Shown in pieces: positions 1-9,660 of a stretch of 9,660 nucleotides of DNA (within the stretch, counting starts at the first letter, position 1; the number at the start of each line of letters is the position of its first letter). Both the position numbers and the translations under genes were made by a program. Source of the stretch: a virus (Duplodnaviria > Heunggongvirae > Uroviricota > Caudoviricetes). The stretch lies in IMG/VR virus record IMGVR_UViG_2706794662_000014; one strand, written 5' to 3'. Under the pieces are notes generated by a model. It was given only the letters and a program-made list of their open reading frames with translations, did no database searches and was not told the origin of the DNA.

Positions 1-83
1 AGGGACAGCTGATAGAAACAGAAGCCACTGGAGCACCTCAAAAACACCATCATACACTAAATCAGTAAGTTGGCAGCATCACC
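1..83 (-). mobile_element. IS1 insertion sequence, partial (left inverted-repeat end; element continues left of the window)
   Basis: Positions 1-83 read as the reverse complement of the first ~83 nt of IS1 as I recall it; terminal repeat GGTGATGCTGCCAACTTACTGAT appears as ATCAGTAAGTTGGCAGCATCACC at 61-83. insA 5' end lies on the minus strand from ~28 leftward. From memory, not a search. Confidence 0.9.
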
Positions 84-235
84 CCGCCACAGAACAATTA
101 TTGCTTTTGCCGTTGATGACAATAAAGTTTTTATCGCAGGCGTATACCACGGTGGGCAAATCTATGAAACCGATTTTTTATCCAGTGCACCGTAAAACCC
201 CCATCCTTCAGGGCGTGGCGGATATCAAACTTTGG

Positions 236-1318
236 TCATTTTCTCTGGCTGATCTTTACCGGATAACCATCCCGAAGATCAATTAAGTGCTCCGGTTCAG
301 AAGCAAACCATGCATAAGATCCCCACGCCAATTCTGGTATTGCCTTTTTAAAAGGCAGAGCACTTCTGTCCATAAATGCCGTAAGGAATGCAAGATTTTT
401 CTCGCTGAACCCAGCGTCAATAGCCAAATGAGTGAGAGTAACTTTTCGTTCCCTGTTTATAGGCCCATCTGTCGCAACTACTTCAGTGAAAACTACAAGC
501 ATGTCCGAACCCGTTCGGTCCTCTCCCAAATCAATCAAAATAATATCTGGAAGTGCTTTTGAGGCATCAATATTCAGCCCCAATGCTTTTGCCAATACAT
601 CATCCTGAGCAACAACTTTATTCCCGGATTCAGACAACCAGAGCACAGTTGGATTCTTAAGAAAATTAGGAGCAAAAACTTCGATGACGGCCTTAGCTAT
701 TGTACTTGACGGGCCCGGAGCTAAAGTTCTCTTCTCTCCATTTGGGAAAGTGACGACTACGGCATCAGCAGCAATCACTGCCCCTGATTTCAATAAACGC
801 AACCTAGCAAGAGCGGCTTTGTTCAAATGATTTTCTTGCCAGGAACTTATTGCACTCAGCAGCGAATCTCCTTCAAGCCCGGCATCAAAGAGTGCTGCAA
901 AAGAGCGATTCAAACTGTAACGAGGACGAGAGGATGTGGTGGGTATACCTTTACGCTCAACAATTGCATTGCAAGGTATTAGGCCATTTTTTATAGTTTC
1001 ATCACGTATTGGCTCACGCGTATTTTCCGCATACCATGCATCAGCAGGCCTTATCTTTTGTTTAGAGAAAGTCATCTTTACCCAGCTTTCTCTGGACGCA
1101 TCATCAGTAAGAGCAGCCTGCGAATCTCCCATACTTACAACCTGGCTGGGCCTTATCCATCGCCCCAGCCCCTCAACCGCACCAGCATAAAACATGACAA
1201 AAATTGTTTTTGCAGCTATTTCCCGAATTAAATATCCACGATTCTCAGTCCCTTCAGGGAAAATTAATTGTAATCTTTCCCGGATAACATTCAATGGGGG
1301 AACAACAGGCAGATTCAT
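236..1318 (-). CDS. Putative type II restriction endonuclease, PstI/BsuBI-like
   Basis: 360-codon ORF. ATG (1318-1316) overlaps the methyltransferase TGA stop (ATGA at 1315-1318), GGAG ~9-12 nt upstream. C-terminal segments LPDIILIDL...LVVFTEVVATDGPINRERK and AWGSYAWFASEPEHLI resemble my recollection of PstI-family enzymes (LPDVVVYD...LFLIEAVTSHGPISPKR). Position directly downstream of a methyltransferase. Family assignment is unverified recall. Confidence 0.6.
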   Translation of the reverse strand: MNLPVVPPLNVIRERLQLIFPEGTENRGYLIREIAAKTIFVMFYAGAVEGLGRWIRPSQVVSMGDSQAALTDDASRESWVKMTFSKQKIRPADAWYAENTREPIRDETIKNGLIPCNAIVERKGIPTTSSRPRYSLNRSFAALFDAGLEGDSLLSAISSWQENHLNKAALARLRLLKSGAVIAADAVVVTFPNGEKRTLAPGPSSTIAKAVIEVFAPNFLKNPTVLWLSESGNKVVAQDDVLAKALGLNIDASKALPDIILIDLGEDRTGSDMLVVFTEVVATDGPINRERKVTLTHLAIDAGFSEKNLAFLTAFMDRSALPFKKAIPELAWGSYAWFASEPEHLIDLRDGYPVKISQRK

Positions 1319-3147
1319 GCAATCATCACTCCATAGAAACCAGCGATAGTTCTCTCAATAATCCGTCTGTGGACGCCAGCATCAATTAACGATTGAATCT
1401 CCATCACCTGCTCCAGAGAAGGCAACGGGATTGAATTCAATTCATAGGCCGAAACAGCAACACTTCCGCTTATACACCTGAACGCCCGATCGACAACATG
1501 CGAATTAAGTAGCATATCAATAACATCAGGGCGAACCGCAGAGAACAATCCGTTTGAATATACAATATTAATATGGTTTTCAACTACTACGCCACCAGTT
1601 TCATCTATAAATCCCTGAGGTAAAATTGCCGCTAAAATCCTTCTGTCCTGTTCCTTCGATGTTGTCCGCTGAACAAGCACACATTCAGATTTTGTCACAA
1701 GGAAACCCTGTTGTGGGGTTATATCGATATAGGGAACATGATTTTTTCTGTCTGCACTAAAACGAAAACCAGCTGAAGTTATTGATTCCGCCCAGACTAA
1801 TGGGTAGCTATTTTTTCCTTTCGTCGTACGCAACTGCGACTTAAATCGATTCCAGACTAACTGACCTGTAGAGACTGAGTATCCCAGATCAGCTAAACGC
1901 GTAGACATCTGTTTTAATACATTAAGAAAACAGGCATCATCTTTAACGCGTGGCAAAAGCCACGTTGCTCCACCTTTTTCTATATCAACATTACCTATTT
2001 TCTCAATTTTTGCTTTGTTCAACCCCTTAGGGACAAGTGAGGATACCTGGGCCCGAACTTTATGTTCTCCCGCCTTGAATGCTGTCAACATTGTTTCCTG
2101 GAGAACATCGTCAAAGACCCCATCCCTGTCAGTGACGAAATCAAGGGCATACGGAGTAGTTTTTTCGGTCAAAAGGGTTCGCAGCGCGGTGAAATACTGC
2201 CCACCAAGAAAAGAAGTTGGCGTAAGAAATGCAATAACTCCTGTTTTCTCTTTAACCATGCGAACAGCTAAGTCGGTGAACAATCCATATAGATTTGCAT
2301 GACCAAATAACGAACGAGAATATTTTTCTCTCGTTTTAATATCGAGAGTGACACGTCCGTAAGGCGGATTCCCTACCACAAGATCATAACCAGAAAATTT
2401 ATCTTGCTGAAGCGCATCAGCAACAATAATTGTATCTTCAGGCAATCTACGTTTTACCTTTACACATAGTGGCATTAGTACAGATTCGAGCAATACCAAA
2501 CTCATCCAAGCCGCAAATGGATCGATTTCTATCCCCTTTAAACGACGACTGATTCTCCTCAACATCCATTCAGGGGAAGACCCCTTGTCTTTTTTTAACA
2601 TTCGAATGGCTACTGGTGCCAAAAATGCACCGCCACCACACGCAGGATCAATAACCGATGCATGAGAAAAATCAACACCAGACTTTTCAGCCAGGTCCAA
2701 GAGACGCGCTACCAAAGGTGGGGGGGTATAGTAAGCCCCCAATTCCGAACGGTAAGCGGATGGCAGCATTACCGTATAAATTGACCCAATCAGATATCCA
2801 GCGTCCTCCGCCGGAAATTGAGCAATAAGCTCACCTGTTCGTTCAGCGAGCTCGCGTGCATCACATGGAATGTCTTCTATGTAAACAGTGTGCGGTACTG
2901 CCCTCATTTTAATGCTGCTTTTTTGCTTTTTTGCAAGGGTATCCCAATATGCAGCTACGATGCTGAAGCAGTATGAGCGGGCATGCATCAACCTTGACTG
3001 CCCGGTTTTGTAATTGCCCGCATAACCTTTGGCCATGGCTTTACAAGTTTGATATCTTTCCAGATTAGAAAACTCATTATCTGTAAAAAAATCAAAATGT
3101 TGCACATTCATAATGTAAAATCCTAATGTATCAAACATGCGGGCCAT
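1315..3147 (-). CDS. N6-adenine (amino) DNA methyltransferase, gamma class, with large C-terminal target-recognition region
   Basis: 610-codon ORF. Motif X GAYYTPPPLV, motif I (AdoMet) VIDPACGGGAFL, motif IV VGNPPYG, in gamma-class order. About 330 aa follow motif IV. Start uncertain (ATG at 3147, 3138 or 3111). Confidence 0.85.
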   Translation of the reverse strand: MARMFDTLGFYIMNVQHFDFFTDNEFSNLERYQTCKAMAKGYAGNYKTGQSRLMHARSYCFSIVAAYWDTLAKKQKSSIKMRAVPHTVYIEDIPCDARELAERTGELIAQFPAEDAGYLIGSIYTVMLPSAYRSELGAYYTPPPLVARLLDLAEKSGVDFSHASVIDPACGGGAFLAPVAIRMLKKDKGSSPEWMLRRISRRLKGIEIDPFAAWMSLVLLESVLMPLCVKVKRRLPEDTIIVADALQQDKFSGYDLVVGNPPYGRVTLDIKTREKYSRSLFGHANLYGLFTDLAVRMVKEKTGVIAFLTPTSFLGGQYFTALRTLLTEKTTPYALDFVTDRDGVFDDVLQETMLTAFKAGEHKVRAQVSSLVPKGLNKAKIEKIGNVDIEKGGATWLLPRVKDDACFLNVLKQMSTRLADLGYSVSTGQLVWNRFKSQLRTTKGKNSYPLVWAESITSAGFRFSADRKNHVPYIDITPQQGFLVTKSECVLVQRTTSKEQDRRILAAILPQGFIDETGGVVVENHINIVYSNGLFSAVRPDVIDMLLNSHVVDRAFRCISGSVAVSAYELNSIPLPSLEQVMEIQSLIDAGVHRRIIERTIAGFYGVMIA

Positions 3148-3361
3148 AACATCTCATGGTGGCGCATAGCAAACTGGCCCGAAGAATATCACGCACCAAG
3201 TCGATCTCATAACCCGTTATGACAATAAATCTTTGTAGCTGAACTCACTTGGTGATTTGTCAATCATTCCTGGCCTCCAGTTCGTCCTGAATCTCTTTAT
3301 CGAGTTCACCGTATTTGTTAGTCCTCATCACTCACGACTTGACTTCCAGAAATAACCTTGA

Positions 3362-3718
3362 TTATTCGGGGCTATATTTTGTCACCCTGCGTATCCGCGC
3401 TTTCGCATTACGCTCAATCTGGATTAGCTTTTCTATATTTTTTCGCCTTTCCCGCTCCTCCTGGCGCAAGAGCCTTACATCATCTGCCAGTCTGGTTTCT
3501 CTTTTCGCCACAGAGAGCATCCAGTCAAATGGCTCCACAACTGCACCGCAAATTTTACAGCGGACCTGACGCTCTTTTTCGTCAACCCGGACAGAAGCGT
3601 GATGGCAATATGGTCTTTCCGATGGCTCATAAAGAAAATTAACCTGATTACGAGGGTTATCCTCTTTTACCGGAAATAAAACAATATTGCTTAACTCATC
3701 TTCTGGTTTTATTTCCAT
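3362..3718 (-). CDS. Hypothetical prophage protein with Cys-rich zinc-ribbon-like motif and basic coiled-coil tail
   Basis: ORF track 3362..3775 starts at a non-ATG codon. Internal ATG at 3718 (MEIKPEDE...) has a strong RBS AGGAGAGGAG 5-8 nt upstream. Motif C-H-H x15 C-K-I-C; C-terminus rich in R/E/K. TAA stop at 3362-3364. Confidence 0.55.
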   Translation of the reverse strand: MEIKPEDELSNIVLFPVKEDNPRNQVNFLYEPSERPYCHHASVRVDEKERQVRCKICGAVVEPFDWMLSVAKRETRLADDVRLLRQEERERRKNIEKLIQIERNAKARIRRVTKYSPE

Positions 3719-3775
3719 GCTCCTCTCCTTTGATGCGAATGCCAGCGGTAATTGAAGCCTGATAGCTAATTTCAC

Positions 3776-4198
3776 TCACAGTACCGCCTCCTGAAAATCA
3801 CCCTGATAGAAAGCCGGTACACGCTGCATAACTTCACTCTTCCGGCACTCGCGACAGATTATGTTCTGATGTCTGTCGTAGCGGCGTATTTCTCCGTCTG
3901 GTAATGACCAGATAAGGTCCGGATCAACCACAGATGGTTTCTTCAGCTTTGCCCTCGAGAGTTTTTTGCGGGCGTTTTGCCAGTCCTTACGAGCCTGTTC
4001 AGACGGGAATAACCCGTAGCCAGAGTTGTATACATCCCCACTGGCAACCAGCTCTCTGGCGAGAACGCTTATTAAATATCTTGTCGCCCCGGTTTTAGCT
4101 TCCAGTTGTCGTAACGTCTCGCGCCCACTCTGGCGTACGAGTTCAACAACCTGCCCCTTAATTTTTTCCCGCTCTTCCTGTGTAAATACTTTTGCCAT
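3776..4198 (-). CDS. Hypothetical prophage protein, winged-helix-like N-terminus plus CxxC
   Basis: ORF track starts at TTG 4213; ATG at 4198 (MAKVFTQEE...) is the first ATG. HTH-like segment ETLRQLEAKTGATRYLISVLARELV; C-terminal ICRECRK. No family recognised. Confidence 0.5.
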   Translation of the reverse strand: MAKVFTQEEREKIKGQVVELVRQSGRETLRQLEAKTGATRYLISVLARELVASGDVYNSGYGLFPSEQARKDWQNARKKLSRAKLKKPSVVDPDLIWSLPDGEIRRYDRHQNIICRECRKSEVMQRVPAFYQGDFQEAVL

Positions 4199-4213
4199 AA
4201 GCGCCCCCGGCAA

Positions 4214-4939
4214 TCACTTTTCCGACACAATACGACCGGAGGAATCGACAATCTGTCGAACAATATCCCGGTGCTTGTTCAGCTCCCGCAACGCGGCGCA
4301 GACACGCTCCCACTTCTGGACATGACTTTTCGCCCGACGCAGTTCGCGGTTTGCCATATGCAGCGATGGTAAAACCAGGTCATCCGCTTGCGTTTCGGTG
4401 AACGATGGCAACGACTGCACAATGTCCGCCACAGTTTCTGTTTTAATTTCTTCCTGTGTTGCAGCTTCCTGTACCGGTAACGCAACACCTGCTGGCTGAG
4501 GAAAGACTTTACCATCCGTTTCCGCTATGGATGCGGCTTTCGGCTCTGCCGGTAAATCAGCGCCCGGTATGCAGTACCGAAATTTACCGCCCTGATTCAC
4601 GCGAATCAGACGCCCTTTGCTGATTGCCATGGCCAGCGATGAATTCGCCCGGCGGGAGGTAATCCCGAACATCAGTGCCAGCTCATCCGCCGTTTGTGGG
4701 CCATGTTGTTCAATCGCCTCAGTCAGCATTTGCGCTGTCACTTTCGGTACCGGTGACACTGGTTCACTTTCACCAGCCTGAATCAGCCACCACATCGAAC
4801 CCTTGTTATCCGCTTCACCACGGCGCTTCAGTTTCCACAGTTCGTTGACCGCATCTTCACGGCTGATTCCAAGGCGGGACGCCACCACATGTGAAGAGGC
4901 TCTTTTCAGTGCTTTCAGTGCGTCAAATACAGTTTCCAT
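4214..4939 (-). CDS. Hypothetical prophage protein with two winged-helix-like repeats
   Basis: ORF track starts at TTG 4957; ATG at 4939 (METVFDALK...) has GGAGG 8 nt upstream (plus 4948-4952). Two similar HTH-like segments ([25 protein letters not shown] and [28 protein letters not shown]). TGA stop at 4214-4216. Confidence 0.55.
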
Positions 4940-4960
4940 TAAAACATCCTCCAACAAAAA

Positions 4961-5472: not shown

Positions 5473-5745
5473 GCACCTGATAANNNNNNNNNNNNNNNNN
5501 NNNNNNNNNNNNNNNNNNNNNNNNNNNNNNNNNNNNNNNNNNNNNNNNNNNNNNNNNNNNNNNNNNNNNNNNNNNNNNNNNNNNNNNNNNNNNNNNNNNN
5601 NNNNNNNNNNNNNNNNNNNNNNNNNNNNNNNNNNNNNNNNNNNNNNNNNNNNNNNNNNNNNNNNNNNNNNNNNNNNNNNNNNNNNNNNNNNNNNNNNNNN
5701 NNNNNNNNNNNNNNNNNNNNNNNNNNNNNNNNNNNNNNNNNNNNN
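5473..5745. other. Run of 273 N (assembly gap or masked sequence)
   Basis: Literal n characters in the sequence. It removes the 3' end of the O-like gene and the 5' end of the DnaC-like gene. Confidence 0.99.
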
Positions 5746-7555: not shown

Positions 7556-7583
7556 TCAAAGTGATTAGCAATCTTATTAGAAT
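7555..7583 (+). promoter_or_regulatory. PRM-like promoter for the repressor gene, possibly giving a leaderless transcript
   Basis: -35 TTCAAA (7555-7560), 17-nt spacer, -10 TAGAAT (7578-7583); predicted start ~7590, at the ATG (7591). No clear Shine-Dalgarno before ATG 7591. Confidence 0.4.
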
Positions 7584-7590
7584 TGGATGT

Positions 7591-8091
7591 ATGAAAAGAA
7601 AATCATTGTCAGACACCGACCTCAACGCCGCCAGAAGACTGAAAGAAATCTGGATGGCAAAGAAATCTCAGTTGGGATTGACTCAGGAACGTGCGGCGGA
7701 AATTATGGGGTTTTCAACACAAGGGGCGGTAAGTCACTACCTAAATGGTCAAACCCCACTAAACCTTGAGGCTGTTCTAAAGTTTGCTGGCTTACTGAAA
7801 GTTCCCCCTGAGTCAATCAGGCCAGACATGGTAGATTTGCTGCAAATTGCAAGGATGTATTGTCGAGAACCACAGCAAGATAACATAGTCGCATTACCAG
7901 CAGACACAGAACAAACAGAGGATGAACTACCGTTTGCCGTAGAGCCGATGGAACGAGATTTAATCCATACGTTCAGAGCTTTTCCGAAAGAAGATCAAGA
8001 ACACATGCTTCAGGAGATGAAAGATAAAAAAGAATCAATGGATCGTACGGTTGCGCGGTGGTTAGCTGCACAAAAAGGCCGTCGCGCCTAA
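7591..8091 (+). CDS. Prophage repressor, lambda cI N-terminal-domain-like HTH, no S24/LexA-type cleavage domain; possibly PaaR2-like regulator of the downstream toxin-antitoxin pair
   Basis: ATG 7591 (MKRKSLSDTDLNAARRLKEIW...) preferred over ORF-track GTG 7561. First ~80 aa parallel lambda cI as I recall it ([35 protein letters not shown] vs LSDTDLNAARRLKEIWMAKKSQLGLTQERAAEIMG). Total 166 aa; C-terminal half acidic with no Ser/Lys peptidase motifs. Confidence 0.75.
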   Translation: MKRKSLSDTDLNAARRLKEIWMAKKSQLGLTQERAAEIMGFSTQGAVSHYLNGQTPLNLEAVLKFAGLLKVPPESIRPDMVDLLQIARMYCREPQQDNIVALPADTEQTEDELPFAVEPMERDLIHTFRAFPKEDQEHMLQEMKDKKESMDRTVARWLAAQKGRRA

Positions 8092-8110
8092 ATCAGAGGA
8101 GATATGTAAA

Positions 8111-8305
8111 ATGAGTACAGTCCTTTCCCCAATGGTTTCAGAATTTGAGACAGTTGAGCAAGAAAATAGTTACAACGAATGGCTGCGGGCCAAAGTAGCA
8201 GCAAGCCTCGCGGATCCCCGCCCGGCGATTCCGCATGATGAGGTAATGGCGGAAATGGAACAAATTATTGCCCAAATTGCTGCTGCAACTCACAGAGGTG
8301 AATAA
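8111..8305 (+). CDS. paaA2: Type II antitoxin, PaaA2-like, partner of ParE-family toxin
   Basis: 64-codon ORF, RBS AGAGGAG (8095-8101) 9 nt before ATG, TAA stop overlapping the toxin ATG (TAATG at 8302-8307). Sequence LSPMVSEFETVEQENSYNEWLRAKVAASLADPRPAIPHDEV matches my recollection of PaaA2 from E. coli O157:H7; symbol is from memory. Confidence 0.7.
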   Translation: MSTVLSPMVSEFETVEQENSYNEWLRAKVAASLADPRPAIPHDEVMAEMEQIIAQIAAATHRGE

Positions 8306-8595
8306 TGTTACCCGTTTTATGGCTACCATCTGCTCGTGATGATTTGCGCCAGATCGTAGCCTACATAGCTAAAGAAAATCCCGCGGCAGCACGCAGAATG
8401 AAAATTCGAATTGAAACATCCGTTTTGCCGCTCACAGAGCATCCTTACCTGTATCCTCCAAGCGAGCGAGTTCTTGGTCTTCGTGAAATTGTAACTCATC
8501 CTAACTACATCATCCTTTACCGAGTAACAGCATCAAGCATAGAAGTAGTAAATATTGTGCATTCTCGAAGACAGTATCCAGGCAAAAACAGTTAA
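8305..8595 (+). CDS. parE: ParE/RelE-superfamily toxin (ParE2-like)
   Basis: 96 codons. Typical ParE pattern: MLPVLWLPSARDDLRQIVAYIA...PYLYPPSERVLGLREIVTHPNYIILYRV...IEVVNIVHSRR. Translationally coupled to the upstream antitoxin. Confidence 0.85.
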   Translation: MLPVLWLPSARDDLRQIVAYIAKENPAAARRMKIRIETSVLPLTEHPYLYPPSERVLGLREIVTHPNYIILYRVTASSIEVVNIVHSRRQYPGKNS

Positions 8596-9535: not shown

Positions 9536-9660
9536 GGTAATGACTCCAACTTATTGATAGTGTTTTATGTTCAGATAATGCCCGATGACTTTGTCATGCA
9601 GCTCCACCGATTTTGAGAACGACAGCGACTTCCGTCCCAGCCGTGCCAGGTGCTGCCTCA
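9536..9660 (-). mobile_element. IS1 insertion sequence, partial (right inverted-repeat end; element continues right of the window)
   Basis: 9536-9660 reads as the reverse complement of the last ~125 nt of IS1 as I recall it (GGTAATGACTCCAACTTATTGATAGTGTTTTATGTTCAGATAATG...). insB 3' end on the minus strand, TAA at 9551-9553. Same orientation as the copy at 1-83. Confidence 0.9.

Follow-up and report, generated by a model that had tools for sequence, protein, structure and literature searches.

The window examined here, the whole 9,660-nt stretch of IMG/VR record IMGVR_UViG_2706794662_000014 (Caudoviricetes), carries on its minus strand two long open reading frames (ORFs), 3147..1315 (610 amino acids (aa) in its longest form) and 1318..236 (360 aa), here called M and R for the DNA methyltransferase and the restriction endonuclease that they are predicted to encode. 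The junction between them reads ...gattgcATGAatctg, the TGA stop codon of M overlapping the ATG start codon of R by 4 bp, and a GGAG lies 10 nt upstream of the R ATG. A preliminary description of this DNA had taken the two ORFs, with their ATGA overlap, for a PstI/BsuBI-like restriction–modification (RM) pair; the analyses below uphold both the overlap, from the sequence itself and from homologous loci, and the kind of system, from the Pfam domains, a match to SdaI and the motifs and fold of M. We hold with good confidence that the pair is a Type IIP RM operon of the BsuBI/PstI family carried as cargo of a lambdoid prophage, in this case a ~9.5-kb defective lambda-like prophage remnant assigned by sequence comparison to Shigella sonnei. 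The coordinates of the features discussed are collected in Table 1.

Table 1. Features of the window that bear on the RM pair, with strand and basis of assignment
Feature	Position	Strand	Basis
R gene, predicted BsuBI/PstI-family Type II restriction endonuclease, 360 aa	236..1318	-	Pfam, PADLOC, SdaI match
M gene, predicted gamma-class N6-adenine DNA methyltransferase, 598 aa	1315..3111	-	Pfam, PADLOC, cassette comparison, AlphaFold2 (AF2) model
ATGA, M stop/R start overlap	1315..1318	-	Sequence reading; homologous loci
C7 homopolymer in M (codons YTPPP of motif X), allele-specific	2720..2726	-	Cassette comparison
Conserved proximal leader	3112..3225	-	Almost invariant in four cassettes from different prophages
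Perfect TTGACA	3263-3258	-	Lies in the non-conserved distal leader
Extent of RM cargo cassette	182..3357	.	BLAST against RM-less syntenic prophage
Last 112 nt of convergent parE toxin gene, cut by IS1	84..195	+	Alignment to FDAARGOS_943
IS1 end truncating the prophage just downstream of R	1..83	-	100% identical to IS1 ends
Second IS1 end	9536-9660	-	Same strand as 1-83

R is built of an N-terminal winged-helix DNA-binding domain followed by a C-terminal PD-(D/E)XK nuclease domain. Residues 188–349 match the catalytic-domain profile PF06616 (E 9.3e-45, 152 bits, 151/154 model positions) and residues 10–172 match PF17728, the N-terminal helix-turn-helix (HTH)/winged-helix profile (E 1.2e-30, 107 bits), the Pfam cut-off for both profiles being 27 bits, and the protein is recognized by the PADLOC model REase_II PDLC03589 at 2.8e-128. 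The PstI-family C-terminal motifs that had been noticed in the 360-aa protein are thereby borne out by the two profile matches, and profile searches with both proteins, which the preliminary description had proposed, give a BsuBI/PstI nuclease for R and an N6-adenine methyltransferase for M. Among solved structures the sequence of R matches SdaI alone (2ixs, E 1.8e-16), the BsuBI/PstI family having no other solved structure; the two enzymes share the same two-domain architecture, whereas their identity is ~22% and the N-terminal domain is about 30–40 aa longer here. P257-D258 and E279 of R align with the acidic PD...E residues of SdaI (P232-D233 and E248) and also with the PD...E of the EcoGIII-type R, from a pair that we took from an Stx2a phage for comparison, and they are invariant in the subfamily alignment (A1). 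Across 16 subfamily members ~130 columns are invariant, and R of the window retains all of them. The AlphaFold model of R, built from a shallow alignment, has a mean predicted local distance difference test (pLDDT) score of 65, with 80–90 in the N-terminal domain. A fold search with this model returned SdaI as the only significant PDB match (E 8e-14, probability 1.00), at a template-modelling score (TM-score) of 0.36–0.41 and a root-mean-square deviation of 18 Å, the catalytic half being poorly modelled; given the low confidence of the catalytic domain, the fold match is taken as supportive only.

In M, the Pfam matches are to Eco57I (1.7e-13) and N6_Mtase (2.1e-09), and the PADLOC model MTase_II PDLC03338 fits across its full length (1.8e-300). 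Numbered on a 598-aa protein (see below), the motifs are GAYYTPPP at 125–132 (motif X), DPACGGGAF at 155–163 (motif I) and NPPY at 248–251 (motif IV), and the C-terminal ~250 aa, corresponding to the target-recognition domain, are homologous to the C-termini of BsuBI-type and Alw26I-type enzymes. This order, motif X, motif I, NPPY and C-terminal target-recognition domain, identifies M at the level of sequence as a gamma-class N6-adenine methyltransferase. The AF2 model of M (pLDDT 84.5, predicted TM-score 0.82) resembles CamA (E 5e-19), M.TaqI, M.BseCI, MmeI and BrxX, with a TM-score normalized to M.TaqI of 0.74–0.78; M shares with M.TaqI, CamA and M.BseCI the fold, the domain order, the NPPY and the S-adenosylmethionine (AdoMet) motif, and differs from them in an identity of 14–20% and in an additional N-terminal helical region. 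That region, ~120 aa long (residues 1–120, ~2752-3111), is conserved within the subfamily, with C23, K24, R40, R45, C48 and W56 invariant; Pfam gives no match for it, and PstI-size methylases lack it. PADLOC keeps its models for this subfamily apart from those for the PstI-size, SdaI-size and fused types, and the PstI-size models (R 2e-28; M 2e-50, covering only residues 131–602 of M) fit far worse than the dedicated ones. Since the dedicated models fit at full length and the PstI-size ones in part, the ‘oversized’ M, correctly described beforehand as larger than M.PstI-size enzymes, is a trait of the subfamily.

The layout of the pair was compared across 80 loci from different species, 76 of which could be scored for the overlap. 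In 76 of the 80, R is immediately preceded by an M homologue of ~600 aa, the 4-bp overlap (as ATGA, GTGA or TTGA) is kept in 62/76 scorable loci spread over the Proteobacteria, and the divergence of M and that of R are correlated (r = 0.87 in the 80-locus set). This frequency supports an overlap that exceeds chance and is under selection, and the conserved overlap is consistent with translational coupling of M and R, as judged from the sequences compared. Taken together, the shared overlap, the adjacency of M and R and their correlated divergence argue for a co-evolving, mobile and functional RM unit. The PstI genes, for their part, are divergently transcribed and do not overlap. The cassette 182-3357 codes for M and R only; no small HTH gene that could be a C-protein controller was found within it, and a 137-aa ORF further upstream is not part of the cassette and matches no PADLOC model.

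Considering the upstream region of M, which was aligned across four cassettes (the window, Kluyvera, Citrobacter and a metagenomic contig), two of the four have lost the upstream candidate starts at 3147 and 3138 or carry them in another frame, indels and an ATG to ATA change being seen between the candidate starts in the three other cassettes; the ATG at 3111, preceded by AGGA, is conserved among the compared cassettes. Because of this conservation, and because M homologues are nearly all 593–598 aa long, M most likely starts at 3111 and has 598 aa; the 610 aa first given for M hold for the longest ORF and not for the gene as we now delimit it. A stretch of ~110 nt proximal to this start is conserved, and the sequence upstream of ~3225 diverges. 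The proximal leader contains a near-palindrome ATAAC-GG-GTTAT (3220-3209), a possible extended −10 element TGaTATTCT (3191-3183), a GATC and the AGGA Shine–Dalgarno sequence (3124-3121). Its conservation across unrelated flanks suggests that the cassette carries its own expression signals, and we infer that the proximal leader may act as a promoter. A structured RNA leader was considered and rejected, the predicted fold being not significant (z = −0.69) and Rfam giving no match. Overlapping this region (~3120-3149, minus strand) is an upstream ORF of 9 codons, ATGTTATGGCCCGCATGTTTGATACATTAG, whose TAG overlaps the AGGA of M; three of the cassettes conserve it, and the remaining one has a shorter form. 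It could encode a leader peptide or simply belong to a conserved untranslated region. The preliminary description had pointed to a 214-bp intergenic gap containing a perfect TTGACA. The gap (3148-3361, as measured from the 610-aa start) and the hexamer exist, but the hexamer does not hold up as promoter evidence: the window has three copies of TTGACA where chance alone would give 6.5, AGCTAC stands 17 nt downstream of the hexamer with no −10 hexamer at 16–18 nt, and the site reads ACGACA in Kluyvera and cannot be aligned in the other two cassettes. We therefore reject it as a promoter −35 element.

The boundaries of the cassette emerge from BLAST comparison with an RM-less syntenic prophage of E. 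coli DG341-1 (L002), in which the flanks 84-181 and 3358-4201 align at 89–92% identity and the interior does not; DG341-1 carries instead 1.16 kb with three small ORFs. The GC content is 0.40–0.46 within the cassette against 0.50–0.54 in the adjacent early region. In prophages of Kluyvera, Citrobacter and others a cassette of 81–89% identity fills the same slot in the same orientation, namely that between the replication genes and the RusA/DUF968/Q genes of lambdoid prophages. Since the boundaries are sharp, the slot is shared with other prophages and the GC content is lower, it is well supported by these sequence comparisons that the pair is replaceable prophage cargo of the nin-region type, the position that had been proposed for it. 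The earlier term ‘moron’ suits the pair in its absence from a syntenic relative and its sharp boundaries, and suits it less well in that a terminator of its own was not found and a promoter of its own was not demonstrated.

The exact R protein is present on at least 1000 contigs, overwhelmingly of S. sonnei. Complete S. sonnei genomes carry identical, full-length R and M, which share 99% identity with those of intact E. coli prophages. In a published PADLOC survey of 994 S. sonnei genomes, 982 Type II systems were counted, the system not being identified there (PMC13293514), and this count fits an RM pair nearly fixed in S. sonnei. Beyond this species, the R subfamily comprises more than 3700 clusters in a protein search, spread over the Proteobacteria, and occurs also on chromosomes and on conjugative plasmids of Burkholderia, Xanthomonas and others; RefSeq already names both proteins, WP_000113425.1 and WP_001053102.1, at family level. 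By sequence the pair is thus a new, uncharacterized member of a large and already catalogued subfamily.

We suggest the following mechanism. M, working as a monomer, would most likely N6-methylate one adenine per strand of a short palindrome, and R, a two-domain endonuclease, would cut that site where methylation is missing. M and R would be co-transcribed from the conserved leader of the cassette, and ribosomes finishing M would re-initiate on R through the stop/start overlap, making the synthesis of R dependent on that of M and delayed relative to it. The cassette would in this way guard the lysogen against unmodified phage and plasmid DNA, and loss of the element would be penalized through post-segregational killing. 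Both M and R are distant homologues of an experimentally active EcoGIII/BsuBI-type pair, and both would be active enzymes.

Several observations weigh against an active operon of this kind. Ala282 of R stands where SdaI has K251, and the R model is weak in its catalytic half (pLDDT 35–65). One S. sonnei assembly (L087) has a C6 run in place of the C7 tract, with a split M beside an intact R. No promoter in the leader was detected by a sigma-70 consensus scan; downstream of R an intrinsic terminator was likewise not found, a scan of the minus strand from the R stop (236) to the end of the convergent parE (195) giving no terminator-like site. Finally, a literature search found no methylome or cleavage data for the subfamily or for S. 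sonnei: E. coli MRE600 has no matching methylation motif, a Burkholderia methylome paper makes no mention of a subfamily system, and a PLoS Biology supplement gives counts of methylation patterns and no motifs.

One rival reading is a silent or decaying system in S. sonnei, with R inactive or unexpressed and the locus amounting at most to an orphan methyltransferase in a dead prophage. The carrier is indeed an IS1-truncated remnant, its leader lacks a consensus promoter, and frameshifted or fragmentary M is seen in one assembly and in the 53G draft, which lists a 441-aa M fragment. The C7 tract is found only in the S. sonnei/E. coli allele, other cassettes encoding the same YTPPP residues with C runs of 2–5, and is a place where frameshifts might readily arise. 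With an active R, a frameshift in M beside an intact R gene would kill the cell; however, the assembly with C6 has several other split genes, and we argue against a natural M-minus/R-plus variant or phase variation, the split M genes being probably homopolymer or sequencing errors. A nuclease killed by the missing catalytic lysine is likewise rejected, since all 16 subfamily members carry Ala at position 282 and the active EcoGIII-type enzyme has Thr there; on these alignments the K251 of SdaI is not a family-wide feature. Against silence speak also the intact and near-identical gene copies described above and the retention of every subfamily-invariant residue, although intact genes alone are weak evidence for selection, S. 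sonnei being a young clone. On balance we regard a silent or decaying system as very improbable.

A different doubt concerns not the enzymes but their expression: the pair might be a member of the early-right transcript, made only after induction by readthrough from PR rather than expressed in the lysogen as a moron, in which case it would modify progeny phage DNA and degrade host or competitor DNA. In every prophage examined the pair is oriented as the cro/O/P operon, and neither a consensus promoter in the leader nor a terminator upstream of the pair was found. Yet the ~110-nt leader travels with the cassette across unrelated flanks, the subfamily is common on plasmids and chromosomes where there is no phage promoter, and the S. 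sonnei remnant still encodes a repressor while its RM genes are intact. We consider such an induction-only role improbable, and keep to an operon expressed from its own leader as the preferred reading.

Turning to the recognition site, PstI and BsuBI, the founding Type IIP systems, recognize CTGCAG, according to the Pfam description; they are also the founders of the PF06616 and PF17728 profiles, both of which R matches. A characterized relative is EcoGIII, found in Stx2a-converting lambdoid phages of E. coli O104:H4, O145 and O111, which has been shown to methylate CTGCAG, to cleave it and to restrict lambda-like phages (PMC6602927; PMC3893438). Like the pair in the window, EcoGIII is a two-gene Type II system in a lambdoid prophage, with M first and R joined to it by a 4-bp overlap; its R belongs to the BsuBI/PstI family, and its gamma-class N6-adenine M is homologous to ours from NPPY to the C-terminus only (M residues 248–584 against a Stx-phage ‘modification methylase BsuBI’, 26% identity, E 7e-27). 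It differs in having 26–27% identity to the present M and R, in the size of its proteins (M of 489 aa and R of 317 aa versus 598 and 360 aa here), in the lack of the ~120-aa N-terminal helical extension of M and in its place, adjoining cI in the immunity region whereas the present pair follows the replication genes. Orthology with EcoGIII is rejected on the strength of this low identity and the other genome position. A CTGCAG system of P. syringae was also considered as a possible subfamily member and set aside, as it spans 2.4 kb and is PstI-sized.

The recognition site can be named only as a default guess, CTGCAG or another site with a TGCA core. Since EcoGIII recognizes CTGCAG (PMC6602927) and SdaI recognizes CCTGCAGG (PMC3424549, reference 90), all identified characterized members of the family (PstI, BsuBI, EcoGIII and SdaI) recognize one or the other, and M and R may be exact isoschizomers of the PstI system, recognizing CTGCAG and cutting CTGCA^G. 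The 3.1-kb cassette contains no CTGCAG, in keeping with this idea, but the count is uninformative, with two sites in the window against 2.35 expected. The low identity to the CTGCAG enzymes, the separate PADLOC models and the shift of specificity that SdaI shows within the family all speak for caution, and we hold exact isoschizomery to be a reasonable, still tentative, proposition. It is because of that identity and the SdaI shift that we go no further than a default guess, and the earlier warning that specificity could not be assumed is justified both by this identity and by the ~120-aa extra N-terminus of M.

Concerning the carrier, the window is a contig in its entirety and has at either side an IS1 end, both on the same strand; the one at 1-83 matches IS1 ends of phage P1 and of E. 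coli records at 100% identity. Complete S. sonnei genomes have the same ~9.5-kb segment between two direct IS1 copies, an arrangement like that of a composite transposon, and directly beyond it lie the chromosomal genes for mannitol dehydrogenase, ydfZ, a GntR regulator and dcp (the ydf region). The remnant corresponds to the early region of a lambdoid prophage, and its gene order is a repressor-like HTH gene with PaaA2 and ParE, cro, a YdaT-type gene, the replication genes, DUF1627, DUF977, a small ORF, M and R. At the position of the parE remnant E. coli FDAARGOS_943 has intact ParD and ParE (RelE/ParE-family) genes. Intact versions of the prophage were found in 2/5426 complete E. coli genomes and carry downstream ParDE, DUF968, RusA, Q, lysis and HK97-type head genes. 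The 247-aa DUF1627 gene (4214-4957, minus strand), between the DnaC-like and DUF977 genes, is absent from the otherwise 99% identical prophage of FDAARGOS_943, as in ordinary lambdoid mosaicism. The replication genes are interrupted by an assembly gap of 262 N (5484-5745), where complete genomes have ~318 bp. On the plus strand (7561-8595), opposite cro and the YdaT-family gene, stand, as assigned by Pfam, consecutive genes for an HTH regulator of 176 aa, a PaaA2-family antitoxin of 64 aa and a ParE toxin of 96 aa, a set that we take to resemble the paaR2-paaA2-parE2 module of an E. coli O157:H7 cryptic prophage.

For fundamental biology the finding adds little, given that PstI-family Type IIP systems are well understood and that EcoGIII has already been characterized in lambdoid prophages. 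For the family, the pair represents a large, Proteobacteria-wide subfamily for which no recognition sequence was found in the literature. For S. sonnei, it appears to be the one Type II RM system in almost every genome, and probably shapes the entry of phages and plasmids and the genetic manipulability of the species; its rarity in E. coli could make it useful for marking the lineage or let it hinder gene flow. Two possibilities are of most interest, namely that the specificity is new and that the pair helps to keep the IS1-flanked remnant in S. sonnei. In particular, the pair may recognize a site other than CTGCAG and, together with the PaaR2-PaaA2-ParE-like set, act as an addiction module in S. 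sonnei, a combination that we think unlikely. The IS1-flanked remnant could be lost by a single recombination, and S. sonnei is under IS-driven genome reduction; were the idea correct, addiction would explain why the remnant persists in ~99% of S. sonnei genomes in spite of the direct IS1 repeats, and a private, species-wide methylation could limit the exchange of DNA between S. sonnei and E. coli, in which the pair is present in only 2 of the 5426 genomes.

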